Virus record (IMG/VR): IMGVR_UViG_3300010222_000003
Coordinates: 1-63,920 of that record
From: a virus
Strand: one strand, 5' to 3'
DNA length: 63,920 nucleotides
Shown piece by piece: positions 252 to 25,800 of the stretch. Under the pieces are notes generated by a model. It was not told the origin of the DNA. It saw only the letters and a program-made list of their open reading frames with translations, and made no database searches. The first letter of the stretch is position 1. Each line of letters begins with the position of its first letter. The translations under genes were made by a program, and so were the position numbers.

Positions 252-280
252 CGAAGCAACGGCTCAAAACCGAACTGTCC

Positions 281-2102: not shown

Positions 2103-2136
2103 AGATTTATATCAGATGCTGCTGTAGCTAAATATT

Positions 2137-3099: not shown

Positions 3100-3371
3100 G
3101 GGTGTGCTTCCCGCAGGTCTTTCAGACGAACGAATCGGCCGCACTCGGGACATTCGCCGTCTGAGCCCTTGTATACATAATCGGTAGGGTCGTTATTAAG
3201 GGTTGGCATGAATAAACACGTTATGTCCGCCAGTTTCAGCGGAAAGGCGTTGTGACAGTAGGGGCATTCTTTGATTTTGCCCTTCATGTCCGCTTTGATT
3301 TGGCGACGCTGGCTGTTACCCATCGGGTCGCGTTCCTGCGGGTTGGGTTCGTAGTGCGGCGAATCAGGCAT
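3096..3371 (-). CDS. Zinc-ribbon protein, hypothetical
   Basis: 91 aa with CPYC ... CPEC pairs. An ATTAATA box lies about 24 nt upstream of the ATG. Confidence 0.6.
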   Translation of the reverse strand: MPDSPHYEPNPQERDPMGNSQRRQIKADMKGKIKECPYCHNAFPLKLADITCLFMPTLNNDPTDYVYKGSDGECPECGRFVRLKDLREAHP

Positions 3372-3407
3372 ACCGGGTAGTCGCGCCGGTTCGGGCTATT
3401 AATGCCC

Positions 3408-3428
3408 GGGCGCTGCGTAGCAGCGCCC
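3408..3428 (-). terminator. T1 hairpin copy (GGGCGCTGC-GTA-GCAGCGCCC)
   Basis: 9-bp GC stem abutting the stop of ORF 3429-3653. Confidence 0.6.
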
Positions 3429-3653
3429 TTACGCGCCACATTCCAAGATCGTGTTGCCACAGTCCGCACACACGGTTTTACAGCCGTGTTTTTGCGCAGT
3501 GCCGCCGTCTTTGCATACGAAACAGTCCGGTTCGTAGGTTTGTGCCGACATAGGGATTTTATCGTTGCTGTCTGTCGTACAATAAGCTTCCGGAACCGCC
3601 TTCCGGCAGGGCCGGAAGGCACCGAAGCCTTTATATTCGCCGCCAGTGTACAC
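3429..3653 (-). CDS. Cys-rich small protein, hypothetical (start uncertain; possibly 3551)
   Basis: C-terminal part CFVCKDGG...CKTVCADCGNTILEC. The stop abuts a T1 hairpin. Weak call. Confidence 0.35.
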   Translation of the reverse strand: MYTGGEYKGFGAFRPCRKAVPEAYCTTDSNDKIPMSAQTYEPDCFVCKDGGTAQKHGCKTVCADCGNTILECGA

Positions 3654-3802
3654 GGAATTGGCGCGGGGCGTCGTTGCGTGGAAATCCGGGCGCGTGACGT
3701 GCGCCCGAGGGTTGGAACCCGCAGGCGAAACTTAAACCATTCTCCGCGTCCTGGCACCAATTTGGTGCCAGCACCTCCTTGCAAACCTGAGCTACGCTCA
3801 GG

Positions 3803-5596: not shown

Positions 5597-5643
5597 TTAA
5601 CTATAATACCGGGTCGTAGCTAATTAAAAGCCGGCGTTTCCGT

Positions 5644-7110: not shown

Positions 7111-7784
7111 TACTCGGAGTCCTCAGCTTCTTCGGACTCCGACAGGTCTCTGAAATCCACGTCGATCAGGTCCGAATCCGAAACCTCTTCGTCCGCAAAC
7201 GCTTCGGCCAAAGAATCGCCGTTTAACGCTGATGCTTTCTTGGTTTCAGGGTCATTCAGCAACCCAAGGTCTTTCATCCGCTTAATCACGCTTTCGTTTT
7301 GCTGTCGAATATCATCCAGCAGGATGTTCGGAACATCATCGGAGAAAAGCGTACCTTCTTCGATCCGCTCTTCCTTTTGCACCCAGGTTTGCTTTTTGAC
7401 GTACTTGTACGCACTCGGTATTTGCTCTAAATCAATCGCTATATTCCGAGCGACTTCCCGATCGAACATGTCGGGTTCGCGCCCGTGAATCCGGCGAAAC
7501 CGATCGCACAGGTCTTGGTGCATTTGTTCGATAAATTCCACGTCCGCATTCGGAAAGTTTTGCACATAGTTTTCCCGGTCGCTATACAAACCGTGACGAG
7601 TGGCGTTCTGGTTGCCCTGCTTGGATTTCGCCATACTATCCAGTACGGCCTTTTTCTCTTCTTCGTCCGGGGGGTGGACCGCACAGTAGCCCCGTTCATC
7701 CTCAGAATCAGGCAATCGTTCGCAATATCCGCCGCTTTCTATTTCGAAGCCGCAGCGGCCTTCAATAGGGTGTTCGGAGACCAT
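7110..7784 (-). CDS. Terminase small subunit (putative, positional)
   Basis: 224 aa and acidic. Its stop overlaps the terL start at 7110. The GNQNATRHG motif recalls small-terminase-type proteins. Confidence 0.45.
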   Translation of the reverse strand: MVSEHPIEGRCGFEIESGGYCERLPDSEDERGYCAVHPPDEEEKKAVLDSMAKSKQGNQNATRHGLYSDRENYVQNFPNADVEFIEQMHQDLCDRFRRIHGREPDMFDREVARNIAIDLEQIPSAYKYVKKQTWVQKEERIEEGTLFSDDVPNILLDDIRQQNESVIKRMKDLGLLNDPETKKASALNGDSLAEAFADEEVSDSDLIDVDFRDLSESEEAEDSE

Positions 7785-7809
7785 AGTGTCAGTACCCTAT
7801 TGTTTGGTT

Positions 7810-8301
7810 TTAAGCGGAGTTAAAATTAGTGTTGATCCAATCGCGAAAATCCGCAACGGCGCGGCAATCGGGACACTGATAGCCAAGCGTCTTGTACGGT
7901 AGCGGTTCACCGACTGCCTGTACTTCTTCTTCTATCTTCGGCTCTAAAGAGCCCACACTGCTGATTTCGTAGTCACATTTCGGACAGCGGTCGTTTGTCT
8001 CTTCTAAGGTCTTGTGACACGAAGCGCAAACCGCCGCCAGGTTTTCGCGAAAATGGCTGTCTTCTTCGGCGTCGAAGTAACGCCGCGGAATCAGGTGATG
8101 AACGTGAAGCCGGCCGACTACAGCACTCGGTTCGTTGCAAAGCCGGCATTCCCAACCCGCAGCTTCTTTTTCAGCAGCGCGTAGCGATTCCCAAGATTCA
8201 GGTTCTGGATCAACCCCATGCTCCGAAAAGCAATGACCCCGCATTCTGGGTTTTGACGGGAAAGTCTTATTGCAAACACGGCATTCGTAACTACCAGGCA
8301 T
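7810..8301 (-). CDS. HNH endonuclease with N-terminal C2H2-like zinc finger
   Basis: YECRVCNKTF...HCFSEH finger, HVHHLIPRR...NLAAVCASCH HNH core, and extra CPKC / CPDC pairs. Adjacent to the terminase genes. Confidence 0.85.
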   Translation of the reverse strand: MPGSYECRVCNKTFPSKPRMRGHCFSEHGVDPEPESWESLRAAEKEAAGWECRLCNEPSAVVGRLHVHHLIPRRYFDAEEDSHFRENLAAVCASCHKTLEETNDRCPKCDYEISSVGSLEPKIEEEVQAVGEPLPYKTLGYQCPDCRAVADFRDWINTNFNSA

Positions 8302-8605
8302 GATTAGAATTACGACCCTAATCGAATTAACTCTTTTGACTTGTGTAGTGTTGTACGCAAACTTCCTGTTTGGTACGACGGTAGCGGCGGCTGTAACCGC
8401 CGGAATTATAATCGGACTGACGGTAGAAGCAATCGGAACGGTGTTGGTTTTGCTATGAAGTAGTTTAAAACGCTGGTACTTGGAACCTGCCTGCTGGTTT
8501 TGGCTACAACGTGCGCCATTCTGACAGTCGGCGAAGTGTTCACAATGGGCTTTTTAAGCGGAGTTATCTTCGGCGTGGGTTGTTTAACGCTGATGCTTTT
8601 TGTCG

Positions 8606-9943
8606 CTACTTGAAGCCGCTCGGAAACGGACGGAATTGAACCGGAGACCTGGCCTTCAACGCTGAGAATTCGCGGCTATCGACATCCAGGTCATCAGGAT
8701 AGACAAGCATCGGAACGCCATACCCCGATTCATTGTGTCCTGCATACATCAACGCCTGGCTTACACCTTCCTTCAATACGGCTTCGGCGTTGTTTTCACA
8801 TTCGATGAAAAAATCCGCCATAGCCGTAGAAGCGACTATATCAGGTTCACGCTCCGAGGAATCAAACCGCGGTTCTCGGGACACGCTATCAGCACCGAGT
8901 AAGCGGCGAAGGAAGGCAACGACACGTTCGATGAAACCAGCATCGGAATTGTCATCATTCCCGTCTTCGCCTTCGTTGCCTTCGCCCCCGCCTTCGCCCC
9001 CGGTTACGACTTCGATTCCAAGCAACCGCTGGATGTTCGCCGCCTTGTCTATCAGGCTAACTTTCTGAGAACCAGCGTAGACATGACCCACGAACTTCGG
9101 TCGCTTGGTGGTTCCATCACCCATGTACGTTACGACAGGCGAACCGGAATCGCCGCCTTTCGACATTGCCGTAGTCACATACTGATCGGTGCGTTCGATC
9201 TTTTCTCCGCCGCTATACCCCACCCTAACGGTCGCCGACGTGGCTTCAACGGTGCCGCGCGTATAGCCCGACGAACGCCCCGTTTTCTGTACGCCTTGGC
9301 CCTTGGAAACGTCCGTTTCAACACCGTTGATATTGCCGATCGTATGAATCGTGTTCTTTTCATCGTCTCCTACGGAACGCACCGAAGCGTCTACCGGAGT
9401 GCCGTCGGCTAAGGGAACCCCACCGAGATACTGTCCGACCTGATCCCCATTCCCAGGCGGGGTACTGGAAGCATCGATCGGGGAAGGTTGTACGACGGGT
9501 TCGCCGACTTCGGCGTTACCTTCCCGCCCGTAGACGTGCATGTTCGACACCCGGACCAATTGACCTTCTTCGGCCTGTAACCCTGCGGCGCTCGGGTCCA
9601 CAACACGAGCTAAGAGGCCGCCAGTGGCCGCAGTAAGCTCCGCGTTGATTTCCGAGACCCCAGAGACGACAGGGCGGTGCCGGGCCTTAGGGCTTCGCTC
9701 CGAGGCAGAGAAACGATCGGTGGGAACGTGTAAATGCTGCGTATGACACGCCGGGTCGCCGGCTTCGACTACCCGCGTGTTCGTATCTGGATGCACGCGA
9801 TTGCGAATCAGTTGCCGCTCGGGGATTTCATCTTCTGAGCGCCGGGTTTCTACGAAGACGGTTAGATCCCCCGCGTCGTTTCCATCGTCTACGCCCCTTA
9901 CTCCGGGGTCGTCTAACAAGTGGTGGTAGTGTTCTGTAGCCAT
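8606..9943 (-). CDS. Trypsin/chymotrypsin-like serine protease with unrelated C-terminal domain
   Basis: 445 aa with the GDSGSPV active-site motif. A Gly/Glu/Asp-rich linker (GGEGGGEGNEGEDGNDDN) precedes a ~100-aa domain containing the pattern EPDIVA...FIECENN. Confidence 0.7.
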   Translation of the reverse strand: MATEHYHHLLDDPGVRGVDDGNDAGDLTVFVETRRSEDEIPERQLIRNRVHPDTNTRVVEAGDPACHTQHLHVPTDRFSASERSPKARHRPVVSGVSEINAELTAATGGLLARVVDPSAAGLQAEEGQLVRVSNMHVYGREGNAEVGEPVVQPSPIDASSTPPGNGDQVGQYLGGVPLADGTPVDASVRSVGDDEKNTIHTIGNINGVETDVSKGQGVQKTGRSSGYTRGTVEATSATVRVGYSGGEKIERTDQYVTTAMSKGGDSGSPVVTYMGDGTTKRPKFVGHVYAGSQKVSLIDKAANIQRLLGIEVVTGGEGGGEGNEGEDGNDDNSDAGFIERVVAFLRRLLGADSVSREPRFDSSEREPDIVASTAMADFFIECENNAEAVLKEGVSQALMYAGHNESGYGVPMLVYPDDLDVDSREFSALKARSPVQFRPFPSGFK

Positions 9944-9963
9944 GGTTATGTTTTGCGTGTTGC

Positions 9964-10404
9964 TTATTTCCGCGCGGAAACCGCTGCTGCTACCGCCGGC
10001 CGAAACAGTTGCTCATCCGGCGGGGCTGGATTCCCGCTGTATGTGTTCTTTGCAACGTTGAAGACTAAAATCGCAGGTTCGTGTGAAACGCTAAGCTCCG
10101 ATAGCGTGCGGCTTAGATAGGTTGCAAAACGTTCCGCCGAACGCGCTGATAGCGGCCTGGTTTGTCCTGTAGCTTTGCGGCAGTGTAAACAGCGCGCTCC
10201 GGGTGCGTTTTCTCGGAAGTCGCGCCTATCGTATGGACCGTTACGGGATTCGAGCGGCCTTTTATTTCCCTCGTAGTCGTAGTAATAGCGTAACGTGAAG
10301 CAGTTATCACAAGTGCGGTCGTCGCGGCTAACAACGCTAAACACAGTCTCCGGTTCGGTTTCCCGAATGGCCTCATAGGCGTTTTTATTATCGCCGCAGG
10401 TCAT
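9964..10404 (-). CDS. Hypothetical protein with two Cys pairs
   Basis: 146 aa with CDNC ... CLHC. A GTTTTTAG box lies about 26 nt upstream. Confidence 0.55.
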   Translation of the reverse strand: MTCGDNKNAYEAIRETEPETVFSVVSRDDRTCDNCFTLRYYYDYEGNKRPLESRNGPYDRRDFRENAPGARCLHCRKATGQTRPLSARSAERFATYLSRTLSELSVSHEPAILVFNVAKNTYSGNPAPPDEQLFRPAVAAAVSARK

Positions 10405-10442
10405 AAGGTTTGGTACTGTCCGCCGAGGCTAAAAACTTTCCC

Positions 10443-10461
10443 GGCGCTGCGAAGCAGCGCC
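10443..10461 (-). terminator. T1 hairpin copy (GGCGCTGC-GAA-GCAGCGCC)
   Basis: Abuts the stop codon of CDS 10463-10765. Confidence 0.6.
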
Positions 10462-10462
10462 C

Positions 10463-10765
10463 TTAGCCAAACAGCCAGGACAGCGTTGTGTCCCCGAGGT
10501 GGTAGAAAAACCAAACCAAGGACAGCAGCGTTGCAATCATCACCGCTACCAGGATTACGAACCCGAGAAATCCCGCAACTGTCGCGAAGCCGCTGCGGAA
10601 TCCCGGCGGAAGTTTACGAGTAACCCACTTATCAACCGCCGGTTGTATCCGGGTTTCGACCAAAGGAGGGATGAATATCGCTACCAGCAGTGTAGCCGTC
10701 ATTAGAACCGCACTAAAACCGATTGCTACCAGCACTTGTGCCGCCGCTTCCAGGTCTACAGTCAT
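10463..10765 (-). CDS. Membrane protein, hypothetical
   Basis: 100 aa with three hydrophobic helices. ATGA overlap with the upstream gene. Confidence 0.6.
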   Translation of the reverse strand: MTVDLEAAAQVLVAIGFSAVLMTATLLVAIFIPPLVETRIQPAVDKWVTRKLPPGFRSGFATVAGFLGFVILVAVMIATLLSLVWFFYHLGDTTLSWLFG

Positions 10766-11127
10766 GGAGCGCCAAAGATCAGCACTTCGGGGTCATCGTC
10801 CGTTAGTTCGTACGGACAGTGTAGCGGGAAGTCCTGATCGCCTGCGGCCGCTTTGACCGCCGCGACGACCGCCGCACAACATATCTTCCCTTTGGCACCC
10901 ATCGGCGATAGCTTTCGCGTGTCCTCGGAATCGACCGGCTTGGTGTCTTCCGACACGGGTTCCAGTGCGAACACCCCCGCATTTGGATCGCCGGAAACGA
11001 TCAGACGCTCGGGTAGCCCCGACACGGTGCGCCAGGCATCCATAGCTTCGCGCGGCAACCAGATGTAAGTGCCGGCGCTACCCGCGGGAATGCGCACACA
11101 ACTATCGGAATCGTTAATTTCGGACAT
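10762..11127 (-). CDS. Hypothetical protein
   Basis: 121 aa, translationally coupled to the next gene (ATGA at 10762-10765). Confidence 0.55.
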   Translation of the reverse strand: MSEINDSDSCVRIPAGSAGTYIWLPREAMDAWRTVSGLPERLIVSGDPNAGVFALEPVSEDTKPVDSEDTRKLSPMGAKGKICCAAVVAAVKAAAGDQDFPLHCPYELTDDDPEVLIFGAP

Positions 11128-11147
11128 GGTAAAAGGTAACGCCGCGG

Positions 11148-12989
11148 CTACAGTTTAATGTTGCGCAATTCTTGTGCGATTTCTTCGGCGTCAGACGGGT
11201 TCACTTCGTCCCCGTCTACGAAGGCCTGTAGACATTCGGCCGCAGCGTCAACCGATTCCTGAGCCGAACGCCCCCCGTCCGCCGTTATCTCGGTTTGCTC
11301 CGCGTCGATTTCGCCGCCTTCGCCGTCGGGGCCGAAGACCCCATAGTAATCGTTCATGCACTTTTGCCTCTGGTAGTAGGCATCACGGAACGACATGCCG
11401 TTATCTTCGACATCAACGATCATGGCATCGTCCCCGCCACTCGGTCGGAGCGCGCGCCCGATCGTTTGCACGGTTTCGACATCCGACTTCCCGCCGTGCG
11501 CTAAGATAATCGCATTGACTTCCGGCAGGTCAACACCCTCCTTTAGCAGCGTCGAAGCCACAATGTCGATTTCCCCGTCGGCGAAGTCCTGTAGCCGCTC
11601 TTCACGGTTATCGGACTCGGAGGACACAGCTTCGGCAACCGCGTCGGACCCGCGCGCTTCCGCAATCTCGTTTGCAATGTCCGCAATCTGATTTGCGGGA
11701 CTGATCCAGCGCGTGTTGACGATGACCCGGCGGCCAGTCTCCGCTAAGTCAACCGCCTTTTCGGCTATGGCGCTGTTACGAATCTCGGACTCAGCGATAC
11801 AGCGCTTGTAAGCCGTTTGGTAGTGTTCGTGCTTCCCTTCGCGGGTAGGGCCGTCATGGGTGATGCTGTCGAACGCGGGTTTCGCCAGGTAGCCTTTGCG
11901 GATCAGATGCTCGGGTTCAACGCTGTAGACTTCACTACCAACCGCCCCTTCAATCCATAGCTCTTCGGCTTGAACGCGCCGCCAGGGCGTTGCCGAAAGC
12001 CCGATCCGGTAGTGACTCGGGAATAGTTGCCCAACCTTGTGGAACGTATCTGCGGCGCTGGTTCGGTGGCACTCATCGAAGATACTGACGCCGTAGTCCT
12101 CGGGGGCCAGTTCCTTGTCTTCGCCGCCTTCAAGCCCGCGGCTAACAACGCTTTGCATGATCGCCACAGTGACCGGGCCTTCGGACCATTGATCGTCTCC
12201 GATCATGCCGGGTTCAACACCCAAGCAATCGCGGATGTTTTCTGCCCACTGGTATAGCAGTTCCTTGGTGTGGACCCACACGACCGCGCGACGACTAAGG
12301 CGCTGGATCAGGCGCATTGCTACCACGGTTTTACCTCCGCCGGTCGGAATGGCGATAACGCCTTGTTCCTCTTCTTCTGCGGCGTCTACGGCTTCGCGCT
12401 GGTAGTCGCGAAGGTCATGGGAAAATTCCCACGAAAGGGCATGATCGACAGCGGTGCCGCGCGCGCCGCCTTCCGGCCCCAAAACCGTAACACCGAAGCC
12501 GTCAGATTCGAGGATTTCGACCGCACGGTCGATCAGCATGAGCGGCCCCGAACCCGAGCGCCGGAACACGTACTTAGTCCGGGGCGCGCCGGGGTCAAAT
12601 TCGGCTTCGGGGTTCTCGTAACTGAATGCTCGGATCAGCAGGTCGAAGGCATCCTTATAGGCCTCTTGTTCGGATTCCGCCTGATCCAAGTGGAATTGAT
12701 TGCGCTCGGGTTTGCGGACAAGCGTCACGGCACCGGAGCCCGAACTTTCGAACGGTTTGTACTCCGGAGGAATAACCGTATTCAGCGCGTCTTCGATTTG
12801 CTCGTAGGAACGCGGCGAAACGGCAATAGCCCAACTAAAATCATCCAGGTCGTAGTAGGGCTGGTAGCGCGTCACACCCCAGGCCGTTGATTTGACATCC
12901 GACTTCGGAGCGCCTACGATCGCCAGTTTTTCGTCTTTGCTGTACCCATCGTCTTCCGCTTCGACAAACGCAAAGTCGTATTCGGTCAT
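11148..12989 (-). CDS. SF2 DEAD/DEAH-box helicase (XPB/Rad25 or restriction res-subunit type)
   Basis: Motif I IPTGGGKT, motif II IFDECH, motif III GLSATP, motif VI QTIGRALR. Start taken at MTEYDF; an upstream ATG at 13004 is the alternative. Confidence 0.9.
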   Translation of the reverse strand: MTEYDFAFVEAEDDGYSKDEKLAIVGAPKSDVKSTAWGVTRYQPYYDLDDFSWAIAVSPRSYEQIEDALNTVIPPEYKPFESSGSGAVTLVRKPERNQFHLDQAESEQEAYKDAFDLLIRAFSYENPEAEFDPGAPRTKYVFRRSGSGPLMLIDRAVEILESDGFGVTVLGPEGGARGTAVDHALSWEFSHDLRDYQREAVDAAEEEEQGVIAIPTGGGKTVVAMRLIQRLSRRAVVWVHTKELLYQWAENIRDCLGVEPGMIGDDQWSEGPVTVAIMQSVVSRGLEGGEDKELAPEDYGVSIFDECHRTSAADTFHKVGQLFPSHYRIGLSATPWRRVQAEELWIEGAVGSEVYSVEPEHLIRKGYLAKPAFDSITHDGPTREGKHEHYQTAYKRCIAESEIRNSAIAEKAVDLAETGRRVIVNTRWISPANQIADIANEIAEARGSDAVAEAVSSESDNREERLQDFADGEIDIVASTLLKEGVDLPEVNAIILAHGGKSDVETVQTIGRALRPSGGDDAMIVDVEDNGMSFRDAYYQRQKCMNDYYGVFGPDGEGGEIDAEQTEITADGGRSAQESVDAAAECLQAFVDGDEVNPSDAEEIAQELRNIKL

Positions 12990-13040
12990 GGGTTTTCGAC
13001 CCATTTGGGTAGAATACGGGGTAACTAATAAATCTGTCGT
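12987..13040 (-). promoter_or_regulatory. Conserved promoter plus hairpin-leader cassette P1
   Basis: Minus strand reads TTTATTA-N22-TGGGTCGAAAACCC-ATGAC. About 55 nt match 58947-59000 with two mismatches. Confidence 0.65.
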
Positions 13041-13061
13041 TCCGGACTACAGGCCCCGGTG

Positions 13062-13442
13062 CTACGGCACCGCGTCACGGTGTCTCTGGCGCAACTTACA
13101 ACTACACGTCCGGATCGCATGGCGGCGAACCTGGTTTATACCAAGGCCGTAGTAATCAGCTATGGCACTCGGCGAATAGCCGCGGTCGTACAACGCCTGG
13201 ATGTACGCACAGTCGTAATTGTTCAACTTAGTTGTCGAACTAAACTCGTATTCCTCTTCCCGGACTTTCAGATTAGCCCGCTGGAAAGCGGGCCGGCCAA
13301 ACATCTGCTGATCAGCAGTAGCAATCTCCGTAGCCACGCGGAGAACTTCGACATCTTCTTCGGTCAAACCCGGCGGGCCGGAAGCTTCAACGGTCACAAT
13401 TACACTCCGAGTTTTCTTTGACGTGCTTCGAAACGCAGGCAT
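13062..13442 (-). CDS. HTH DNA-binding protein (start uncertain; GTG at 13397 possible)
   Basis: C-terminal GYSPSAIADYYGLGINQVRRH helix-turn-helix pattern. Paralogous in style to the upstream gene. Confidence 0.55.
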   Translation of the reverse strand: MPAFRSTSKKTRSVIVTVEASGPPGLTEEDVEVLRVATEIATADQQMFGRPAFQRANLKVREEEYEFSSTTKLNNYDCAYIQALYDRGYSPSAIADYYGLGINQVRRHAIRTCSCKLRQRHRDAVP

Positions 13443-13824
13443 CCGACACCCCGAACATTTCTGCTAATTCGTACTGGTACATCGATGGACTCAGGTCGTT
13501 CATCAACCGACATTGTTCCGGAGTCACACACCCATAACTGTGCGTGCATTCGCCGTTGTAGTGTACTCCGATGTTCGTGTGACTAACGCCAGTGTACTCC
13601 GCAATAGCGCGTTGTGGGAAGCCTTCGTCTACCAGGTCACGCACAAGTTCACAGTCCGAAACCGAAAGCCGGCCTGCCGGCAGGTCGAACTGCGGATTTC
13701 GTTTTGCAAGGCGAAGACGGTCGTTTGCCGCAGGGGTTTGTCGCCCGTCAACCAGTTGTGCCAGTTCGGCCGCTTCGGACTGACTAACCGACAATTCGGT
13801 GTCGTGGCGGGTCTTTTCCACCAT
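13387..13824 (-). CDS. HTH DNA-binding protein with two HTH-like repeats
   Basis: GFPQRAIAEYTGVSHTNIGVH and YQYELAEMFGVSDACVSKH segments, each followed by Cys-containing stretches. Confidence 0.6.
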   Translation of the reverse strand: MVEKTRHDTELSVSQSEAAELAQLVDGRQTPAANDRLRLAKRNPQFDLPAGRLSVSDCELVRDLVDEGFPQRAIAEYTGVSHTNIGVHYNGECTHSYGCVTPEQCRLMNDLSPSMYQYELAEMFGVSDACVSKHVKENSECNCDR

Positions 13825-13871
13825 ACCACTTCGTCAAAACCGGAAAGGCAAAAATCCGTCGGTTGCGCGAA

Positions 13872-14519
13872 TTAGGAGCTAAGCGCCGCGTCGATCTTTT
13901 CAGCAGTCTTTTCGCCGATGCCTTCGACCGAAGTCAGTTCGTCTTCCGACGCATTGAAAACGCGCCGTGGCGTGCCAAACTCCGAAAGCAACGCTTTCGC
14001 AGTAACGGGGCCAACACTCGGCAGGCCTTCAACCAAGAACCGGGGGCGTTTGTCTTCGGGGACGCTCGGAGCGTCACGAATAGCCGAGGCATCGGTGCCG
14101 CCGCTGCTTGTGCTTTCGGCCAATTTGCACACAAACGCCGCTGTGTCAACATCAGACGGCAGGTGTTGGGTCATGACCCCCATACGAATGATAGCCCCGA
14201 AAGCGCCACTGACGGCTTCCTCCGGAAGCGCGCGAAGGCTCCATGCTTCCCATTCTCCTTCAAGTAGGAGGACCGGCGTCAAGCTTTCTTCGTCCGCAGC
14301 GGCTTTCAACTGCCGAACTTGGGTCCAAATACTGTTTTCCGTTTGAGTCAACCGACCGATGAAATCCGAATACGTTTTTCGTTCAATCAGATACGCGCCG
14401 GCTAAATAATCGCCGGCACCAAGGGCTTCGTAACTAACATCTATGCCGCGCGACTTCCCGGCCGCTTTAACCATGCCGTACAAGTCCGTCGGTTCCCGGG
14501 TATCGACTACCAGGGTCAT
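13872..14519 (-). CDS. ERCC4-type (XPF/Mus81/Hef-like) nuclease with C-terminal HhH2
   Basis: VVDTREP, the GDY...IERKTYSDF signature, and C-terminal GLPSVGPVTAKALL...VEGIGEKTAEKI hairpin-helix-hairpin motifs. Confidence 0.9.
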   Translation of the reverse strand: MTLVVDTREPTDLYGMVKAAGKSRGIDVSYEALGAGDYLAGAYLIERKTYSDFIGRLTQTENSIWTQVRQLKAAADEESLTPVLLLEGEWEAWSLRALPEEAVSGAFGAIIRMGVMTQHLPSDVDTAAFVCKLAESTSSGGTDASAIRDAPSVPEDKRPRFLVEGLPSVGPVTAKALLSEFGTPRRVFNASEDELTSVEGIGEKTAEKIDAALSS

Positions 14520-14656
14520 CGTTCACCTTCGTTTTTGACCTTTGGAAACAGGTCTCCGTAGCCGACTTCATACGCCACCGGCTTTTGCAATTCTATTTCT
14601 AATTCGACTTCGGGCCGCCCGTGATACACCATATTCCAGGTCGGTTCTCGGGTCAT
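14516..14656 (-). CDS. 46-aa hypothetical protein
   Basis: MTREPTWNMVYHG...KNEGER, below the ORF-track cutoff. Its TGA overlaps the ATG of the ERCC4 gene (ATGA). Confidence 0.4.
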   Translation of the reverse strand: MTREPTWNMVYHGRPEVELEIELQKPVAYEVGYGDLFPKVKNEGER

Positions 14657-14687
14657 TTTCTACGCCCCGTCTTCGGACGCTAAGGTA

Positions 14688-15560
14688 TTAGCTCTTCGGG
14701 TCTTCGCCGGTCAACCCTTCCTCTTGGATTTGATACAGCACAGTTCGAAGCGTAACCGGATCGACACCACAAACGTCCGCAATTCGCTTCTGAGAAATAT
14801 CGTCCGTGACGAAGTACAGCGCCCCGGCAACGATACCACACGGGTTCCGCCCGTTCTTAAACGATTCATCCAGTTCCTTAGTAATCCGTGTTGCCCGAAG
14901 CCGGGTGTCCGTATCCAGGTCTAACTTCGTTCCGAACCGGCCAACATATTGTTCCGTTGACTGGATCGGTATCGACAAGTCCATTTTGCGGCGAATATAA
15001 TCGACGGACTGTTTAACCCCGCGCGTGTCCGTATTACAAGCTTCGGCTATTTCTTCGTAGGTTCGTGGCACTTCGTTGATCCGCAGCACAATATAGTACA
15101 AACCGGCTACGCTGGCTTCGATAGACCTGCCGCGGAACGTATGTTTATCGGCAACCTGATCGTACAAAGCAATAACCTGATTAACAAATTCGTCGGGGAC
15201 TTCAAGAATCCCGCCGCAGGTCCGCATTTTGTCATAGGCGACGTGGCGCGTGCGGCTAAATTCGTTGTGTTTGGCGCGCTTGTTCAACCGCTTCATACGC
15301 CGCATTTTAAATTCCTCGGTGCCGTCGTACTCGTCCGGATTAAACAGCGTAACGACACCCCGGTCCAAGTGTTGCCGGTTCCGCGGCGGACCGGTTCGCT
15401 TCTTCCGGTCGTTTTCATCAGGGGTAAACGCGCGCCACTCTTCGCCTTGGTCGATATTTACTTTCTCTTCAAGCACCAAACCGCACTCATTACAGTAGTT
15501 CTCATTATCATCAGCAATTACATCCTCAGAACCACATTCGCTACAAGTAAGCTCAGGCAT
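14688..15560 (-). CDS. tfb: Transcription initiation factor B (TFB/TFIIB) homologue
   Basis: N-terminal Zn ribbon CSECG-x15-CNECG, the DQGEEWRAF B-reader-like motif, and two cyclin-like repeats (RGRSIEASVAGLYYIVLR; GRNPCGIVAGALYFV). Confidence 0.9.
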   Translation of the reverse strand: MPELTCSECGSEDVIADDNENYCNECGLVLEEKVNIDQGEEWRAFTPDENDRKKRTGPPRNRQHLDRGVVTLFNPDEYDGTEEFKMRRMKRLNKRAKHNEFSRTRHVAYDKMRTCGGILEVPDEFVNQVIALYDQVADKHTFRGRSIEASVAGLYYIVLRINEVPRTYEEIAEACNTDTRGVKQSVDYIRRKMDLSIPIQSTEQYVGRFGTKLDLDTDTRLRATRITKELDESFKNGRNPCGIVAGALYFVTDDISQKRIADVCGVDPVTLRTVLYQIQEEGLTGEDPKS

Positions 15561-15626
15561 GTCTTATATATCAATAGCTACCGCGTAAATAAAAAGGCTC
15601 GGAAGAAATAACAGAAGGTAACGGGC

Positions 15627-18326
15627 TCAGGCGAACGCCGCCAGGCGTGATTGTTCGCCCTTAGTCGGATCTAAGTTCACTTGTTCGATAGCCTTGTGAC
15701 AGTAATTTTTCCACAAGAATTTGCGGCGCTCAGGCGTGAAGCAAAACGGTTCATCGTTCGCCTTGGGGTTCGGATCTTCCGGATCTAACTGTAAGTGCGG
15801 CAATTGGTTTTCTCGAATCGCCGGATGCACCGTCTTGGTCGTTCCGGACCCGTATTTGATGTAATCTACCTTGTCCCCGCGACCCAGTTTCGCACCCGTG
15901 ATTAGGTCCCGGTCAATAGCCAGGTTATACTGCTTCGCCGCCCTGGTATGGGCCGACTTCCCGGCATAGACATCACAATCACATGCTGAGGATTCCGAAT
16001 CCTCAGCATCACACGCACACGAAAGCCGCTTCCCAAGACCCTTGTGCCGAACCAGCTTGTCGTCTAAGCTTCCCGAGTACACCGCGTGCTTGAACGCTTC
16101 GATGATATGATCCGTGTCCCTGTCTTCAAGCAGCGCGTCAACCAAGGCGCGCTGTAAGTCGGAAGCAACATCCATCGTATCCGACTTTTTGCACTTTAGC
16201 CCCGTGACCTTCTTCTTATCCGACGGTTCCCCGTCTTCCCACACCCGATGATAGGCGTACGCTTTCTTCTTGTCGGTTTGAACGAACCTATCAGCGACGT
16301 AATCCACGTCTAAGTTCAACACCTCAGCGTTCGCGTTCAAGTCTTCGGCCGCTAAGGTCTTTATATGGTCGTTCAGCTTGTCTACGACAGTGTTTGCTAC
16401 TGCTGCTACGGCCTTCGGCTCAGCGTCGGGGTCATCTTCCGCCAGTTCGATAAATACACTGTCCGTGTCACCCCCTACCACACGCTTTACTTCCGGACAC
16501 TCGGCTTCAACGAAGCGTTCGCATTCCCTGATCAGGAACTGCCCGGTTTCAGTGATATGTTCGCTCATACCCGGCAGGTAGTAACGGTGCAATGGCGACG
16601 CCACAACACCGTAGCTGCTGTTATACAAGCTTTTGATGCCCATATACATAGCTTCAGCAACCGCTTCTTCCTCCGAATCGTTCGGAGCGCTGTTTTTTCG
16701 GTCCTTGTAGTCCTGTGCAACCGTATCCAGCTTTTCGGTCGCGGCGGCCAAGAGGCCTTGTTCGCTATCAGGGGTGTTGAACCCGCCGCGGCTTCGTTCC
16801 CCGGCCCCGAAAGCTTCGTTCACCCCTTTAACCGGAGAACTGCCGTCTTCTATCCAGGTGTTTTCCCCGATGTTCAACGCCCGAATGATGTTCGGGTACA
16901 TCGAAGAGAAATCGGCAGTGATGACCCACGAATGTTTGCCCGGAACCGGATCAAAGACATAACCGCCCGGAAACTTACCTGTATCAGCATAGCGCCCGCG
17001 GTCCCCGAAGACATAACCGACGCGCTGCGCTTCGCGAAGCACAACCGAATCAACGGCCTTCCCAACCGCCACCTGCGGGTAGCCGTCATTATCATAGGTA
17101 ATCGAAGACATGCGGGTGTAACCCTCAGCACAGACGCGCGCGGTCGCTTCGACTAAGCTGTATTCGTCGCTGATCTTCTTCGTTAGCCGCGCGTCCTGTA
17201 GGTTGTATTCACGAAGGCGCTCAGAACCGCTATCGAACCATTCCCGCAGGTTCTGATAGCTTTCCGATTCGGCCATGTCCTTAGAATCGCCGACTTCGGC
17301 CTCAGCAACCGCGTCTAAGCTGTACGAATCCAGTTGGTCGCGCTTGAATGACCGAAACAACCCCATGCCGTCAAAGTGTATAATCTCCGAAGACGGCCAA
17401 TAGTAGCCGCCGACTTTTTCCATCCTGTTTTTCAAATACGGCAGGTCGAACGATTCACTATTCCAACCGATCAGCACGAAGTAGTCGCCGAGTAAGCCCC
17501 GGTCGTTGATCCGCGGGTTCCCCCGGTTTGCCGGGTCCCCAACCAGCGCGTTGAAGATTTCGGTTTCCGATCCGCTGATAAAGTGTTCGTTGCCGTTGCC
17601 GTCAACTGCCGCAAACGACAAAATCTGAGCATCCGCGTCTTCGACTTCCGGAAAACCGTCTGACGGATCGACTTCAATGTCAAAGAATAGCACGTCAGAC
17701 GGGTCCGGAGCATCCAGGGCGATACCTTCGTCTATCATGACCCGGCGAACATACGGAACATCGGCCTGATAAGTAAGCGGCGGTTCCTCGGTGTCATGCA
17801 AAACCTCAGCAGCGTTACGCTTCACGTCGGCTTGTGACTTTTCCGAATAGACAGCGCCGGGCGGTAGGTCCGACGCTTCGGTTTCCTCGGTACGCACCGT
17901 GCTGTCATCGACTAACCGCTCATGCACGTATTCCTGCCCTTCTGCGGACCATTCTAATGCCTGCCGGGCGGCTTCCCGGTCGTCGCGAATCTCATCCAGC
18001 GCGCGCCGGATTTGCCCAATGTGCTTCGGCAACGAAGCACACAAACGGTCATACCCGTCCGGTGCCGCAGGTTCATCAATGAAGTCACGTCTTTGCGGTC
18101 CGAAGTCCGGATCATTCCAGGGTATTTGTTCAAAAGCGCCACTGTCGATGTAACAGTACGGCAGAAACGGGTATTCATCCGTCTTTTTCCGCCGCTTAAC
18201 ACCGTCTTCCTTTACCAGCAGTTCCAGGTGAAGCGCCGTTTGATCGCCAGTAGGGTCCTGGCGCACCCCGTAGTCAATGTCGTACAAGTCGAAGTCGGCG
18301 GGGTCGTCGGCAGGGTTTTGCGCCAT
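15627..18326 (-). CDS. polB: Family B DNA polymerase
   Basis: Exo I FFDIEVD, YNLQDARL, Pol A DFSSMYPNII, Pol B KSLYNSSYG, Pol C GGDTDSVF. Confidence 0.95.
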   Translation of the reverse strand: MAQNPADDPADFDLYDIDYGVRQDPTGDQTALHLELLVKEDGVKRRKKTDEYPFLPYCYIDSGAFEQIPWNDPDFGPQRRDFIDEPAAPDGYDRLCASLPKHIGQIRRALDEIRDDREAARQALEWSAEGQEYVHERLVDDSTVRTEETEASDLPPGAVYSEKSQADVKRNAAEVLHDTEEPPLTYQADVPYVRRVMIDEGIALDAPDPSDVLFFDIEVDPSDGFPEVEDADAQILSFAAVDGNGNEHFISGSETEIFNALVGDPANRGNPRINDRGLLGDYFVLIGWNSESFDLPYLKNRMEKVGGYYWPSSEIIHFDGMGLFRSFKRDQLDSYSLDAVAEAEVGDSKDMAESESYQNLREWFDSGSERLREYNLQDARLTKKISDEYSLVEATARVCAEGYTRMSSITYDNDGYPQVAVGKAVDSVVLREAQRVGYVFGDRGRYADTGKFPGGYVFDPVPGKHSWVITADFSSMYPNIIRALNIGENTWIEDGSSPVKGVNEAFGAGERSRGGFNTPDSEQGLLAAATEKLDTVAQDYKDRKNSAPNDSEEEAVAEAMYMGIKSLYNSSYGVVASPLHRYYLPGMSEHITETGQFLIRECERFVEAECPEVKRVVGGDTDSVFIELAEDDPDAEPKAVAAVANTVVDKLNDHIKTLAAEDLNANAEVLNLDVDYVADRFVQTDKKKAYAYHRVWEDGEPSDKKKVTGLKCKKSDTMDVASDLQRALVDALLEDRDTDHIIEAFKHAVYSGSLDDKLVRHKGLGKRLSCACDAEDSESSACDCDVYAGKSAHTRAAKQYNLAIDRDLITGAKLGRGDKVDYIKYGSGTTKTVHPAIRENQLPHLQLDPEDPNPKANDEPFCFTPERRKFLWKNYCHKAIEQVNLDPTKGEQSRLAAFA

Positions 18327-18358
18327 GCGCTACCGTAAACAACCCCGCAAACAAAAGC

Positions 18359-18808
18359 CTATTGGAACCCAGGCGTTCCAGGCGAATCCTCGGTGCCGAA
18401 CAAACCACCCAACACGCTGTTATCAGACGGCGTGCTGGTAGCCAGTTGTTCCTCCATTTCCTGGCGCGATTCGATAGCTTCGTTGTACGCCGCCTTCATT
18501 TCTTCGTCGGAAACGCTCAGTTCGGAAATCGCGTTCCAAGGAAACACGCGGTAGCCGTACTCGGTAAAGATTCCCAAAACGTCGCGCCGCTTCGCGAAAC
18601 ACGTCGAAGCCGACACGTATCCCCGGACAGTGTTTCGCTTGAACGCTTCGGGGTCGATTTCAACCGTGGCGAACAACATTCCATCCATGTCCGCCGCACG
18701 GCTATACAGGGTTTCATCTTCGCCGAGTGGTTCCATGTCTTCACCGCCACCGATTCCTCCGCCGCTGAGGTTAAACGACATAAAACAAACCAGCAGCGCC
18801 ACGAACAA
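18359..18808 (-). CDS. Hypothetical protein with N-terminal hydrophobic segment
   Basis: 149 aa with an acidic body. No family recognised. Confidence 0.5.
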   Translation of the reverse strand: MFVALLVCFMSFNLSGGGIGGGEDMEPLGEDETLYSRAADMDGMLFATVEIDPEAFKRNTVRGYVSASTCFAKRRDVLGIFTEYGYRVFPWNAISELSVSDEEMKAAYNEAIESRQEMEEQLATSTPSDNSVLGGLFGTEDSPGTPGFQ

Positions 18809-18822
18809 AAAGGTTTGCTATG

Positions 18823-19686
18823 CTACTCCGAATCCCACTGGCTACCGCCGACCTTCTTACACTTATCCACAAACGGACACATTTTTTCACACCCTGTCTG
18901 ATCGTTCAGAGTGTCCGTAACAGGGATCGTATCGCTCAGACGGTTCGACCATTGGGTCATGGCACGCGCCTTCACCTGGCCCCACACAGACGCGTCTAAC
19001 GGCACTGAATAACGCCGCTCTTCTAAGTCATTCCGTACGACATACGTCAGTTCCCCCGGCGCGTCAAACGCGTGTTGATACGTCGTAAGCTGCTGTAGAT
19101 GCACCGGATCGTACCCCCGGCGGTTGTAACGGTCCAAGTAATTCAACCGCGTAGTGGTTTTCGTTTCAACCACCCGGTCAATGCATCCATCATATTCGTC
19201 CCAACTTTCCGCTTGTTCAACCGTCGGGTAGCCCTCCTTTTCTTCGTCATACGAAGAACGCGCTACTCGGGACCCGTCGGGCAAAACAGCTACATGACCC
19301 CTGCCGGCAGCGTCTTGGTTAAACACAACCCAGTCCGATTCGCCGACTATCCGTATGCAACCTTCACGACCGGGTGCCGGCAGAAAAATCGTACACCCGA
19401 CATCCTGGCGAACCCGCTTGTCGCCAAAGCGTTCTCGGAGCGCCCGCCCGTAAAAGTCTTCAAGCATATTCCCAAGCGGGAAATAAGGAGACGATTCGGG
19501 GTTTTTGCCGATTTCGTGCAACCAGTACATCCGGCGCTGGCACTTTCCGATTTTAGACGCGTGTACATCGTCTTGAACCCGCTTGTGCCGGCCCGGATCA
19601 TAGCGGTCAATATGTTCGGCTTCTAAGTACTCCGGAACTAAAGGATCTAATTCGGTCAGCGTCGGGGGATTTTCAGTCAATTCCAT
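18823..19686 (-). CDS. PD-(D/E)XK nuclease, Cas4/RecB-like with Cys cluster
   Basis: ESDWVV ... VVETKT (D...ExK), QQLTTYQHAF, N-terminal Cys (GKCQRR) plus C-terminal CEKMCPFVDKC. Confidence 0.8.
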   Translation of the reverse strand: MELTENPPTLTELDPLVPEYLEAEHIDRYDPGRHKRVQDDVHASKIGKCQRRMYWLHEIGKNPESSPYFPLGNMLEDFYGRALRERFGDKRVRQDVGCTIFLPAPGREGCIRIVGESDWVVFNQDAAGRGHVAVLPDGSRVARSSYDEEKEGYPTVEQAESWDEYDGCIDRVVETKTTTRLNYLDRYNRRGYDPVHLQQLTTYQHAFDAPGELTYVVRNDLEERRYSVPLDASVWGQVKARAMTQWSNRLSDTIPVTDTLNDQTGCEKMCPFVDKCKKVGGSQWDSE

Positions 19687-19786
19687 ACGTCAACTAATAG
19701 TTCGGAGCCGTGTTAAACCCTTCGGGACAAGGCTTGTTAACTATAAACAGTAAGCTTAAAATACGATACAGCGCACAGAAATAAGC

Positions 19787-20140
19787 ATGAATGGCGCGAA
19801 TGCGGACGATACTATTTCAGTACGTCAGTTGACGAAGGCCTACAGAAAAGGCAAAATTTCCAGCGACGAATTTATGGACGCACTACACGGAAGCTACCCA
19901 TATCACGAACAAATAGAAGTCATCACTATGCCACAACCCGGCGAACTGATCATTTCCTACAACGGTGGGACAAATCCGACCTTACACAGTCAACTACGAA
20001 ACGCCGGATGGGACACTGACGGAATCGAAATCTACGAAGAGCAAACCCAACACGGCGTCGAACGAACCCAAACCACCGCTGTTGCCGAGTACGAACTAAA
20101 AACCGAGGAACGCCGCCAAATGGTTCAACTGTCCTACTGA
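19787..20140 (+). CDS. Hypothetical protein (plus strand)
   Basis: 117 aa of natural composition. A CTTAAAAT box lies about 25 nt upstream of the ATG. Confidence 0.6.
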   Translation: MNGANADDTISVRQLTKAYRKGKISSDEFMDALHGSYPYHEQIEVITMPQPGELIISYNGGTNPTLHSQLRNAGWDTDGIEIYEEQTQHGVERTQTTAVAEYELKTEERRQMVQLSY

Positions 20141-22853: not shown

Positions 22854-25800
22854 TCAGTCGTCGGACCGACGACCCCCCGTAACCGGATTCGCGCGCTTTC
22901 CAAGCAGTGAATCCGCCGAAACCGTGCTGTTATTGCCTGCTTCCTCGGAATCAGGCGCGCCGGAACCAGGCGCGCCGGAAGCCGCGTCTCCGGTTACCAA
23001 GTCAGTGGCCGAAGCCATGATTTCTTCCTTGGTACGTGGTTCCATAGCGTCCTTCATTTCCGCCAGGGCTTCGGCCTTCGTTTCGACCGGTTCGGTTACT
23101 TCGATTCCGAACGCTTCGAACATCTTGAAGATCGCCGAGTCAATGTGCTTGTCGGGGATCAGCGCCGGGACTTCGCCGGCAGGGTGTTCCTCGGAGATAT
23201 TGGTCCCTGTAGCGGAAGTCGGGTCGTTGGAATCCGGAACGTTCGACGCTCGGAGCGCGCTGTTTTGGGTTGCTCGGATCAGTTCGCTTCGCTGTAGGGT
23301 GTAGTCGCCCGTTTCCTGCCCGATGTAACTTTGCCGCGGTGTCGAGAACCGCGCGGAGTGTACTGCCGAGTAGTCAAACTCGGGAAGGTCCACACCTTCG
23401 GCGAAGGATGAATTACTCGGCAGGGCGACGCTGTTTCGCAGTTCGTGTTGCTCTTTGACGCCGCGGAGGTTGCTGATAGTTTTCGCTAAGGGGATCGAAC
23501 CGCCGTGCGCCCTGTCGGCAACGCGTGTTGCTAAGCGCGCGGCGCGTTTCCCGGAGCCTGCGAAGGCCAGCCCGCTGTAGCGCCCGGTGTTCTGTAGGGC
23601 TTCGATGACTTTGCGAATGTCAGCGCTTTGGGTATTAGCGTTTTCGCCCGTGACACGGACGATTTTCATACAGTCGGTTACGGGGGTGAAGTCGGAGGTG
23701 TAGCGCAGCGGTTCGGGCGCGTCTCCGTGTATTAGTTCGTGAACGTTTTGCATCATCGGCAGGTTGTTTCCGGCGAACCAGTAGGTGCATTCGTCGGGCA
23801 GGTTCGCAAAGACGCGCGTCACGTCTCCGACTACGAAGATTTCTTTCTGGTTGCCGTTATCGAAGGTAAAGACGCCTTGAAGGTCTCCCGTGTCATGGTA
23901 CAGCACGTTCATGAACTTCCGGGAATGGTTGGGTTGCTGGTTGCGCAGGCGGGTCAAAGTGTCGTGGAAGCCGGCTTCCGGTTCCACCCGAGCAATTCGT
24001 TCGCGGATCGCTTGGACCATTGCTTGGAAGCCGCCGTCTTCGTCTAAGTCGCCCCAAACGGAGACGTTTGATTTTTCGATGATTGCTTTGATGTCGAGCA
24101 CTGCCTGAGCGGCGGTTTTCATGTCTTGGTGTACCCGGTCGGTGCGTTCCAGGTCTTCGATGTCCGAAATTATCTTTTCTGCGCACCCGGTGAAGCTTTG
24201 ACCTAAGGCGGTGAAGGAAGACGAATCTTGTCCGTATTCGTCAGACGCGCGCCCTGCTTTGTACACGCTTACTGGCATAGCTAACAGCCGGTCGGTCGTC
24301 GCTTCCTCGGAGGTAATCAGCAGGTCGAAGGTTTCGGGTTCTACGGCTTCGAGCTTTTCGGGCGGCAGGACTACGAAGTCCGCAGTTTTGGCCCCCTGAA
24401 TGTTCGCGTGGTACTGGTTCCGGTCGTCGGGGATTTCTTCGGAAGCGTCCCACGGCGTTAACACGCTTTCACTCGGATAATCCTTACTGCTTGTGTTTAC
24501 GTCGTAGTTTTTCCGAGCGGTGTCCCTGCCGGTCACATACGCGGCGTTGATTTCGAAGTTCACCGCTTTCTCGTAGGTAGCCCTTCCTTCTTCGTGACTT
24601 GGTAGCAGGTATCCCACCCGCGCCCCCTGGTTCACGAAGTGTTTTGCCTTTTCGATGACCGTGTAGGATTTGCCTTGTCGGGCGCACCCTTGAATGGTGG
24701 CGTGTACAGGGGCTTCGCGCGTGGTTCCGTCTTCTTTTTGTACCAGTTCTATCAAATCGGCGCTTTCCTTTTCGGCCATAGCGTCTTCGATGTCGATTTG
24801 GCCTTCGCTTTTTTCGCGACCAAGGTTTAGGTTCGGGTAATCCGCAGCAATGGCGTCTAAAGCTGCGTTGTATTGGTGTGCGCTCAGGTGTTTATCGGGG
24901 TCTTCGGGGTCGTAGTCGTCTATGTCGAAGATTTCTTCTTCGGTAAGTTCGGTGGCTTCGATTGCCGCTTTCATCAGGCAGAGATACGGCACCGGGTCGT
25001 TCTCGGAGATTAGGTTTTTGCGTTTCGCCGTTTTCCAGGCTTGGAATCGCGCTGTCGGGTTCTGAATAAACTCCGAGGGTCCGACACCGGAGCCCGCCAT
25101 ACCGGTGCCGAGTGCTTCGCAGGCGGCGTCTTTGTCGGTTACATCGTCGGAAGCCAGTGCTAACCAGGTCAATGCGTTGTGTGTGACGCCGTGACGCCAG
25201 CATGTTATCAGGTCGGTTCCGGTTGCGGCGTATTCACAGTTTGATCCGGTGTCGCTTCCGTGAATGGGGTGGGGCTGTTTTTCTCCGTTCGGGTTGCCGC
25301 CGGTTGCTATGAAGGCCTGGCGCGCGCCGTTGCCGCTTTGCCCAAATTCGAAGAGTGCGCTTTGGCCGTCTACTTCGTCGGGGTCAACTTGTTCTGCTTG
25401 TGACGCGAACTTCGCGCGTTGCTCTTCGCGCCGCCTTCTGTTTTCGTATTCACAGCGCGCTTTAGCCCGTAGCCAGCTTTTCGGCAGTTCGCGAATGGTA
25501 CACGTCGCCAGTTCCTCCGGCGTCTCTGCTACGGTATATAGCCCGTACTCGGTGTGACCGTTTTTCGGGCTCGGATCGCCGGCCGCCAGGCCGTCTTTCT
25601 GCGGTCGCCAGGACCCCGGCGCGAACATGACTTTCGGCTTCGTAACCCTGCCGCGGAAGTCGGCAATGCGACCTTCGATGTTCCACGCGCCCGGAGCGTC
25701 TATGGCGTCGAAGTCGATTGCTTCTTCGGCGTCTTCGGGTTCGGCGTAGTAAACGTGGTTGCCGCCCGAACGCGACCGGACCCGCAGGCCGCCGGGTTTA

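Follow-up and report, generated by a model that had tools for sequence, protein, structure and literature searches.

The TFB gene and its surroundings

On the minus strand of an uncultured tailed-virus genome, positions 14688 to 15560 hold a gene for a homologue of the initiation factor TFB/TFIIB. The window, meaning the whole stretch of DNA analyzed here, is 63,920 bp long and is the complete record IMGVR_UViG_3300010222_000003; it has direct terminal repeats of 58 nt and carries nearly all of its genes on the minus strand. The TFB gene is composed of the following parts.

14688 to 15560, minus strand: TFB/TFIIB homologue gene, 290 aa, ATG start (two Pfam TFIIB repeats plus Zn_Ribbon_TF; PDB matches; AlphaFold2 model with Foldseek)
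15426 to 15548, minus strand: Zn ribbon, residues 5 to 45, running into the EWRAF motif (PF08271; C6, C9, C23, and C26)
15261 to 15440, minus strand: B-reader and B-linker, residues ~41 to 100 (E41, W42, R43, R55-x-G57, G68, and T71; conserved columns in the alignment with human TFIIB)
15009 to 15239, minus strand: first cyclin-like TFIIB repeat (PF00382, 30.2 bits)
14727 to 14969, minus strand: second cyclin-like TFIIB repeat with the BRE-recognition helix-turn-helix (PF00382, 33 bits; V269 and R272 kept, by alignment with human V283 and R286)
14688 to 14708, minus strand: C-terminal tail G..E[D/N]P, specific to the TFBs of this virus lineage

The family assignment and the complete architecture are secure. 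Pfam detected two TFIIB repeats (58.4 bits; cut-off, 23.6) and the TFIIB zinc ribbon PF08271 (37.7 bits; cut-off, 29). When the protein was compared with the PDB by phmmer, human TFIIB was matched over residues 2 to 273 (E = 1.4e-25) and the P. woesei TFB core at an E value of 1.3e-18. An AlphaFold2 model based on a 103-sequence alignment (mean pLDDT, 90.5; pTM, 0.77) contains three short N-terminal strands, a helix at residues 47 to 53, and 10 core helices, with a pLDDT of only 64 to 85 in the B-reader/linker region. Foldseek placed the whole model on TFIIB of the human and yeast pre-initiation complexes (~300 aligned columns; E, ~4e-12) and its core on P. woesei TFBc (1D3U chain B; 188 columns, 1.8 Å, target-normalized TM of 0.83). 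A preliminary description of this DNA had read the ORF as a TFB homologue with the full architecture of Zn ribbon, EWRAF B-reader, and two cyclin folds, and had proposed profile and structure searches. Both kinds of search confirm the family, and every part was found by Pfam and alignment.

The EWRAF motif occupies residues 41 to 45, and the four zinc cysteines are invariant in the TFB alignments made here. The B-reader/linker region aligns to human TFIIB residues 47 to 127 with no deletion, and the spacing from EWRAF to the LxxP of the first cyclin fold is 74 residues versus ~72 in human TFIIB, a normal ribbon-core distance. A PHROG of unknown function, phrog_20431, matches the viral TFB at an E value of 6e-35. 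No second, decayed TFB was found in the window at the positions used by related viruses.

Along the minus strand, the gene order is a PD-(D/E)XK/Cas4-like 287-aa protein, a family B DNA polymerase (PolB), TFB, a 46-aa ORF, an ERCC4-HhH nuclease, two small paralogues, a promoter cassette, and an SF2 helicase. The neighbors of TFB are as follows.

15627 to 18326, minus strand: PolB, directly upstream of TFB (Pfam DNA_pol_B and exonuclease domain; 57% identical to that of related contig L003)
13872 to 14519, minus strand: ERCC4/XPF-type nuclease with HhH domains, downstream neighbor of TFB (Pfam ERCC4 and HHH_5)
13387 to 13824, minus strand: small protein with two HTH-like segments, on weak evidence (HTH_38, E = 4e-4; HTH_23, E = 3e-3; both below the Pfam cut-off)
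13062 to 13442, minus strand: paralogue of the preceding protein (BLASTP E = 3e-7 between the two)

The TFB gene had been described as lying next to two HTH regulators. Two small ORFs do lie 0.9 kb downstream, but they stand behind the 46-aa ORF and the nuclease, and the HTH evidence is below threshold for one and absent for the other. The protein at 13387 to 13824 has weak PHROG matches to regulators and Atlas leads to HTH_23/28 at a score of only 0.8; the protein at 13062 to 13442 has no Pfam or PHROG match. Neither has a detectable homologue in L003.

The virus and its relatives

PHROG profiles identified a major head protein, a portal, a large terminase, and a tape measure protein of 1,536 aa. 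The proteome is acidic (median pI of 4.77 over 69 ORFs of at least 100 aa), which fits a salt-in halophile host. The nearest cultured viruses are haloarchaeal tailed viruses and are distant, with identities of 25 to 27% for PolB (Halorubrum and Haloarcula viruses) and of 27% for the capsid protein (HGTV-1). By these sequence comparisons, the window is the genome of a tailed virus of haloarchaea that is distant from the cultured haloarchaeal viruses. Neither tRNA genes nor a viral TBP gene were found in the 63.9-kb window. A BLAST search of window positions 1 to 20000 against 201 Halobacteria genomes for a host returned weak coding-motif matches only, and the three spacer-like short matches to these first 20 kb were all without flanking repeats.

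Three IMG/VR contigs, L003, L009, and L010, are true relatives, with 5 to 14 other proteins in common with the window at 29 to 64% identity. The identities to L003 are 61% for the helicase, 57% for PolB, 54% for the nuclease, and 59% for the 287-aa protein; in L009, the 287-aa protein is 64% identical. A fifth related fragment, L140, stops short of the expected TFB position. TFBs of the L010-type cluster lie on contigs of 65 to 67 kb, and the L003 type lies on a 61-kb contig. A search for wider relatives with PolB gave polymerases at 21 to 30% identity only.

Three further genes deserve mention. The 287-aa protein (18823 to 19686, minus strand) is more conserved among the related viruses than any other gene product (59 to 64%) and is a useful marker for the group; its C-terminus is cysteine rich, and it has weak PHROG matches to Cas4-domain exonucleases. 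An isolated plus-strand gene at 56681 to 57187 encodes a YdjM-like membrane-bound hydrolase (Pfam E = 8e-15), whose only relative in the protein databases is its own cluster, with nothing informative on the host. At 7810 to 8301 (minus strand), an HNH endonuclease with matches to C2H2-type zinc fingers lies just upstream of the terminase region with one gene between (7110 to 7784), an order of HNH and then terminase that is usual for HNH-assisted packaging in tailed phages.

Residues kept and changed in the viral TFB

The viral TFB was compared, residue by residue, with ~100 TFBs that do not belong to the virus lineage. It keeps 20/20 columns conserved at a level of at least 90%, 33/38 at a level of at least 80%, and 47/59 at a level of at least 70%. 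At the 60% level, 60 of 88 columns are kept, compared with a median of 69 and a 5th percentile of 56 for the other TFBs. The residues retained in the ribbon, reader, and linker are the four zinc cysteines, E41-W42-R43, R55-x-G57, G68, and T71; those in the first repeat are G144-R145, Y156, and R160; and those in the second repeat are P240, Y249, Q257, V269, T270, and R272. We take E41 and R55 to be the TFIIB start-site pair E51/R66. V269 and R272, which are invariant in the alignments made here, align with human V283 and R286, presumably the BRE-contact residues.

Other well-conserved positions are changed (R134D, R114T, Y186V, and T267D), and the N-R-Y that usually follows R272, in the second half of the BRE-recognition helix, is T-V-L in the viral TFB. 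Compared with cellular TFBs, the protein has a short N-terminus and a deletion of 4 to 6 residues before the last helices. Strain variants (94 to 99.7% identity) differ mostly by conservative changes that lie outside the columns conserved at a level of at least 90%.

With its near-invariant residues kept and its ribbon-core spacing normal, the viral TFB appears from its sequence to be a complete initiation factor and not a truncated mimic, and it stands at the divergent margin of the family. Since every near-invariant TFB residue is kept, it probably recruits host TBP and RNA polymerase (RNAP). The several changed positions, together with the long branch described below, make altered or lost partner binding possible. 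A decoy, or dominant-negative TFB, would occupy host TBP-promoter complexes or the RNAP dock without initiation, shutting down host transcription or selected genes such as those for defense. The substitutions in conserved core positions and in the second half of the BRE-recognition helix, along with the very long branch, would suit such a protein, and global RNAP inhibitors are known from archaeal viruses, e.g., ATV RIP (PMC5123050, PMC7289017). However, the ribbon, B-reader, and B-linker are intact and the start-site residues are kept, and a simple blocker would not need them. These elements are, moreover, conserved across the virus lineage despite an overall identity of 30 to 35%, and we regard a decoy as unlikely.

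Relatives and origin of the viral TFB

An HMMER pass over representatives of ~15 billion proteins yielded 3,747 TFB-family hits, none of which was >37% identical to the viral TFB except within its own 90% cluster, where five variants lie on contigs of up to 64.4 kb. For cellular TFBs, with all archaeal phyla represented, the identity is 29 to 34%, and this includes 32 matches in three haloarchaeal genomes that carry 10 or 11 TFB copies each. Among the cellular TFBs compared, there was no close donor, and a best identity of 29 to 34% excludes recent capture from a host. The preliminary description had recommended a placement against host TFB paralogues; against the 32 haloarchaeal paralogues, the viral TFB is 29 to 34% identical and, on the trees described below, falls in a separate viral clade.

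An alignment-based scan of IMG/VR found 24 viral contigs with TFBs. Single-protein scans of IMG/VR with the TFB or with its 287-aa neighbor found nothing, and alignment-based scans were needed. One metagenome scan found no member of the lineage; the matches listed in a second were loci with essentially only TFB in common with the window and added no lineage member. All three informative related contigs (L003, L009, and L010) encode a TFB, 30 to 35% identical to that of the window, whereas replication enzymes of the related viruses are 53 to 61% identical. The gene is not syntenic and occupies three different positions among the related viruses: after PolB in the window, before PolB in L003, and between homologues of ORFs 22854 to 26084 and 21629 to 22723 in L009 and L010.

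These positions bear on the idea that the TFB serves replication, bringing RNAP near the origin for a primer or for DNA opening and not for gene expression. In every case the gene belongs to the replication module: it adjoins PolB in the window and L003 and, in the haloarchaeal virus HRTV-DL1, comes two genes after PCNA and before the primase; a related cellular TFB copy also stands beside a PCNA-like gene. An early-expressed regulator is equally expected among early and replication genes, however, and the position of TFB varies among relatives. We consider a replication role very improbable.

Phylogenies were computed as a quick tree of 104 rows and a careful tree of 55 rows (LG+C20 PMSF). 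Both join the window TFB with that of L003 and then join this pair with the L009/L010/P0246 group. In the careful tree, the pair has a support of 92/52 and the viral clade as a whole one of 86/93, and SH-aLRT values for the clade in quick trees are 87 to 93. The terminal branch of the window TFB is ~3.2 substitutions per site versus a median of 0.36, and the very long branches throughout the viral clade make long-branch attraction a concern; the clade is still recovered when L003 is left out (support, 76) or when the L009 group is (support, 98). Independent support for common descent comes from the G..E[D/N]P tail, a motif noticed post hoc that is present in 21/21 lineage TFBs and in 0/348 of the other TFBs collected.

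Deeper in the careful tree, a split supported at 95/81 separates all other TFBs from a set made up of the viral clade, two unplaced database proteins, and six haloarchaeal paralogues that are divergent and basic. When ORF43 of HRTV-DL1 was added to the tree, it joined the divergent haloarchaeal paralogues with weak support, outside the viral clade. Two of these paralogues lie in mobilome-like surroundings (L312, G001:C2:56000-72000; L313, G003:C24:30000-46000). The TFB of one has an AbiEii toxin, DUF6166, and a PCNA-like gene for neighbors, an arrangement reminiscent of PCNA-x-TFIIB in HRTV-DL1; that of the other is surrounded by IS240 and IS605 elements and a TBP paralogue. The most economical reading of these phylogenies and gene orders would be that the gene was acquired once, long ago, from a pool of haloarchaeal TFBs that may have been carried on elements, and that it was then kept, changed its place within the replication module, and diverged quickly.

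The presence of TFB in all three informative relatives, the viral clade, and the common tail suggest an old, retained, and rapidly diverging viral gene. A decaying passenger gene from the host with no viral function would also have a long branch and no close cellular donor. Against this, the ORF is intact with every near-invariant residue kept, the fold is predicted with high confidence, strain differences are conservative, and the gene is kept in four diverged virus types with a common derived tail, so that we find a passenger scarcely credible.

Two other groups of TFBs came up in these searches. P0237 and P0084 (35 to 37% identity, one of them on a 64.4-kb contig) were considered as lineage members and rejected, as they branch with TFBs of Bathyarchaeota and Aenigmatarchaeota and are without the tail. 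A further 15 TFBs from viral contigs (L004-L022 in IMG/VR; ~6.8 to 166 kb), some of them near a distant PolB, form their own clade (support, 99 to 100) nested among Thermoplasmatota-like TFBs. Judged by this placement, they are a second, unrelated virus or element lineage with TFB.

Promoters and repeated promoter cores

The upstream regions of 41 ATG-started genes with a spacer of at least 25 nt were subjected to a Gibbs search. The resulting motif is CCGAA, 3 to 4 nt, and TTWW (7.9 bits versus 6.6 to 6.8 in shuffles) and starts mostly 36 to 43 nt before the ATG. Most of the 41 regions, that of TFB included, have a BRE-like CCGAA and a TTWW box 27 to 35 nt before the ATG. This layout is presumably the ordinary archaeal BRE/TATA arrangement for leaderless transcripts. 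The virus thus appears to use host-like promoters, and its TFB gene should be readable by host factors. The promoter features are as follows.

15561 to 15626, minus strand: promoter region of the TFB gene itself, in the 66-nt gap between PolB and TFB
15596 to 15603 and then 15586 to 15595, minus strand: BRE-like TCCGAGCC followed by TATA-like TTTTTATTTA, 26 to 35 nt before the TFB ATG and picked by the Gibbs motif at -43
12969 to 13049, minus strand: promoter-plus-leader cassette before the helicase gene, repeat family D5, with copies at 57712 to 57792 and 58929 to 59009 (minus strand)
13026 to 13036, minus strand: core CAGAYTWATTW, with others at 162 to 172, 1063 to 1073, 46889 to 46899, and 58986 to 58996 (minus strand) and at 56427 to 56437 and 60373 to 60383 (plus strand)

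Two conspicuous candidate promoter classes had been described for this genome, one headed by the AT box of five structured elements and the other by a TTTATTA cassette at three sites. The cassette was indeed found in three copies. The AT box, CCGACCTACCAGATTAATTACTACTACTTTG, occurs in four of the five structured elements and is missing from copy B. Both classes are real, but they have one common 11-nt core, CAGAYTWATTW, so there is effectively one class. This core occurs at 7 sites versus 0.11 expected for a pattern derived post hoc from these same sequences. Neither 21 kb of L003 nor 12 kb of L009 contains it, even when one mismatch is allowed, and no repeated promoter cassettes were evident in the sampled parts of these two relatives.

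In each cassette the hairpin GGGTCGAAAACCC is preceded by a different codon, ATG at 12969 to 13049, CTG at 57712 to 57792, and GTG at 58929 to 59009, and the ATG after the hairpin is constant. Since the first codon varies and the second does not, the second ATG is probably the true start; a short 5' leader would then contain the hairpin, with ~25 nt separating it from the TTTATTA upstream.

These promoters bear on two alternatives. The TFB could be a replacement part without promoter preference, an extra copy for when host TFBs are limiting or switched off, that acts at the same BRE/TATA promoters as the host factors. The generic CCGAA and TTWW layout of the viral promoters, including that of TFB itself, agrees with this idea, as do the unchanged V269 and R272 of the BRE-contact helix. 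Yet the TFBs of the related viruses are 30 to 35% identical while their replication enzymes are at 53 to 61%, a greater divergence than expected of a generic spare, and the core CAGAYTWATTW is specific to the window virus among the sampled sequences. A mere replacement part is, in our estimation, distinctly unlikely.

At the other extreme, each virus of the group might have a rapidly co-evolving pair of private TFB and private promoter core, here the CAGAYTWATTW found at the head of the structured repeat elements and of three gene blocks. Such a pair would act like a phage sigma factor and switch the host polymerase to a defined set of viral promoters, with the acidic, proline-containing tail contacting a viral or host partner. 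The absence of the core from L003 and L009 is compatible with virus-specific promoter-factor pairs and is not proof of them, and a private promoter code is not obviously needed where most viral promoters are generic. We hold this version possible and rather doubtful.

Proposed role

No archaeal virus is known to encode an RNA polymerase of its own, and little is known of how these viruses bring host transcription under their control. In haloarchaea, many TFB and TBP paralogues act as alternative factors for promoter selection. A TFB brought in by a virus would therefore be the most direct conceivable way to reprogram initiation in such hosts, by analogy with phage sigma factors.

We propose, with a probability of roughly 60%, that the gene product works as a virus-specific paralogue of TFB, the general initiation factor of archaea, and adds a virus-controlled factor that biases or sustains viral transcription. 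Family, architecture, key residues, and conservation in relatives are the observations on which the proposal is based. The host machinery would express the viral TFB from its own ordinary BRE/TATA promoter inside the replication module. The two cyclin folds of the product would bind host TBP on TATA/BRE DNA, its zinc ribbon would dock host RNAP, and its B-reader and linker would position the start site. The factor would thereby join the many TFB paralogues of the host, which are used much as bacterial sigma factors are, and would bias or sustain the transcription of viral genes. For these later steps, we infer the binding of host TBP and RNAP, the promoter preference, and the timing.

Several points favor a working TFB: the protein is full length by sequence and structure, its key residues are kept, it is conserved in the lineage, its gene has its own BRE/TATA box, and the haloarchaeal genomes sampled have 10 or 11 paralogues each. 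The authors of the HRTV-DL1 study propose the same role for ORF43 (PMC10544981). The points against it are the branch of ~3.2 versus 0.36, the changed conserved positions, the generic viral promoters, and the absence of a viral TBP from the window. The preliminary description had suggested a private factor that would redirect host RNAP to viral promoters. As far as they could be checked, the residues that contact RNAP, the start site, and the BRE are all retained, and such a redirecting factor is plausible from the sequence.

Comparison with known systems

Phage sigma factors such as T4 gp55 and SPO1 gp28 are virus-supplied initiation factors that redirect the host polymerase. The viral TFB resembles them by functional analogy only, as a virus-supplied version of the host factor for promoter recognition. 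They belong to an unrelated protein family, and polymerase redirection has been shown for the phages, whereas for the viral TFB we infer it.

Compared with cellular TFB (P. woesei core, PDB 1AIS/1D3U) and eukaryotic TFIIB, the viral protein has the same domain order, keeps the near-invariant residues, and superposes at 1.8 Å over 188 columns of the core. It differs from cellular TFBs in being only 29 to 34% identical to them and in its deletion, the changed half of its BRE helix, and its lineage-specific tail.

The viral TFB had been presented as something unusual, but such genes have already been published, including one in a haloarchaeal tailed virus (PMC10544981). TFB homologues have been annotated in Italian rudiviruses (10.1101/2020.01.16.907410), in Asgard viruses and elements (10.1101/2021.07.29.453957; PMC13700489), and in thaumarchaeal integrative-conjugative elements (PMC6563490); a large survey of archaeal tailed viruses makes no mention of TFB (PMC8651126). 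Full-length TFBs are likewise encoded by the rudiviruses ARV3, SSRV1, and MRV1, the Sulfolobales viruses YNP1/YNP2, the Asgard viruses WyrdV1 and JinchiV1, and archaeal integrative elements (PMC13700489). These belong to other virus realms and hosts and are 21 to 25% identical to the window TFB, with the rudiviral ones branching far away. The publications on the rudivirus, Asgard, thaumarchaeal-element, and HRTV-DL1 TFBs report no functional test of a viral TFB.

The closest parallel is ORF43 of HRTV-DL1, a tailed virus of Halorubrum lacusprofundi (OP630574), which was described as a predicted TFIIB that is present in virions and was proposed to recruit host RNAP (PMC10544981). We confirmed that ORF43 is a full-length TFB with a Zn ribbon and two TFIIB repeats, 29% identical to the window TFB (BLASTP E = 4e-37). 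A tblastn search of a phage collection did not report it despite this pairwise match, so absence from that search is not evidence of absence. ORF43 resembles the window TFB in that a haloarchaeal tailed virus encodes it, at full length, within its replication module, and in that it has a long branch near the same divergent haloarchaeal paralogues. HRTV-DL1 is nevertheless an unrelated virus, whose 37.7-kb genome encodes a primase and PCNA in place of PolB, and ORF43 lies outside the clade of the window lineage.

Viral TFBs as such, including one in a cultured haloarchaeal virus, were therefore already known. To these, the present analysis adds a small group of 61- to 67-kb haloviruses that keep a complete TFB through deep divergence, a TFB gene that evolves much faster than the replication enzymes, and a defined set of repeated promoter cores as candidate TFB targets. 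What is new relative to the known systems is the virus lineage, the strong divergence with the functional residues fully retained, the lineage tail, and the candidate promoter set.
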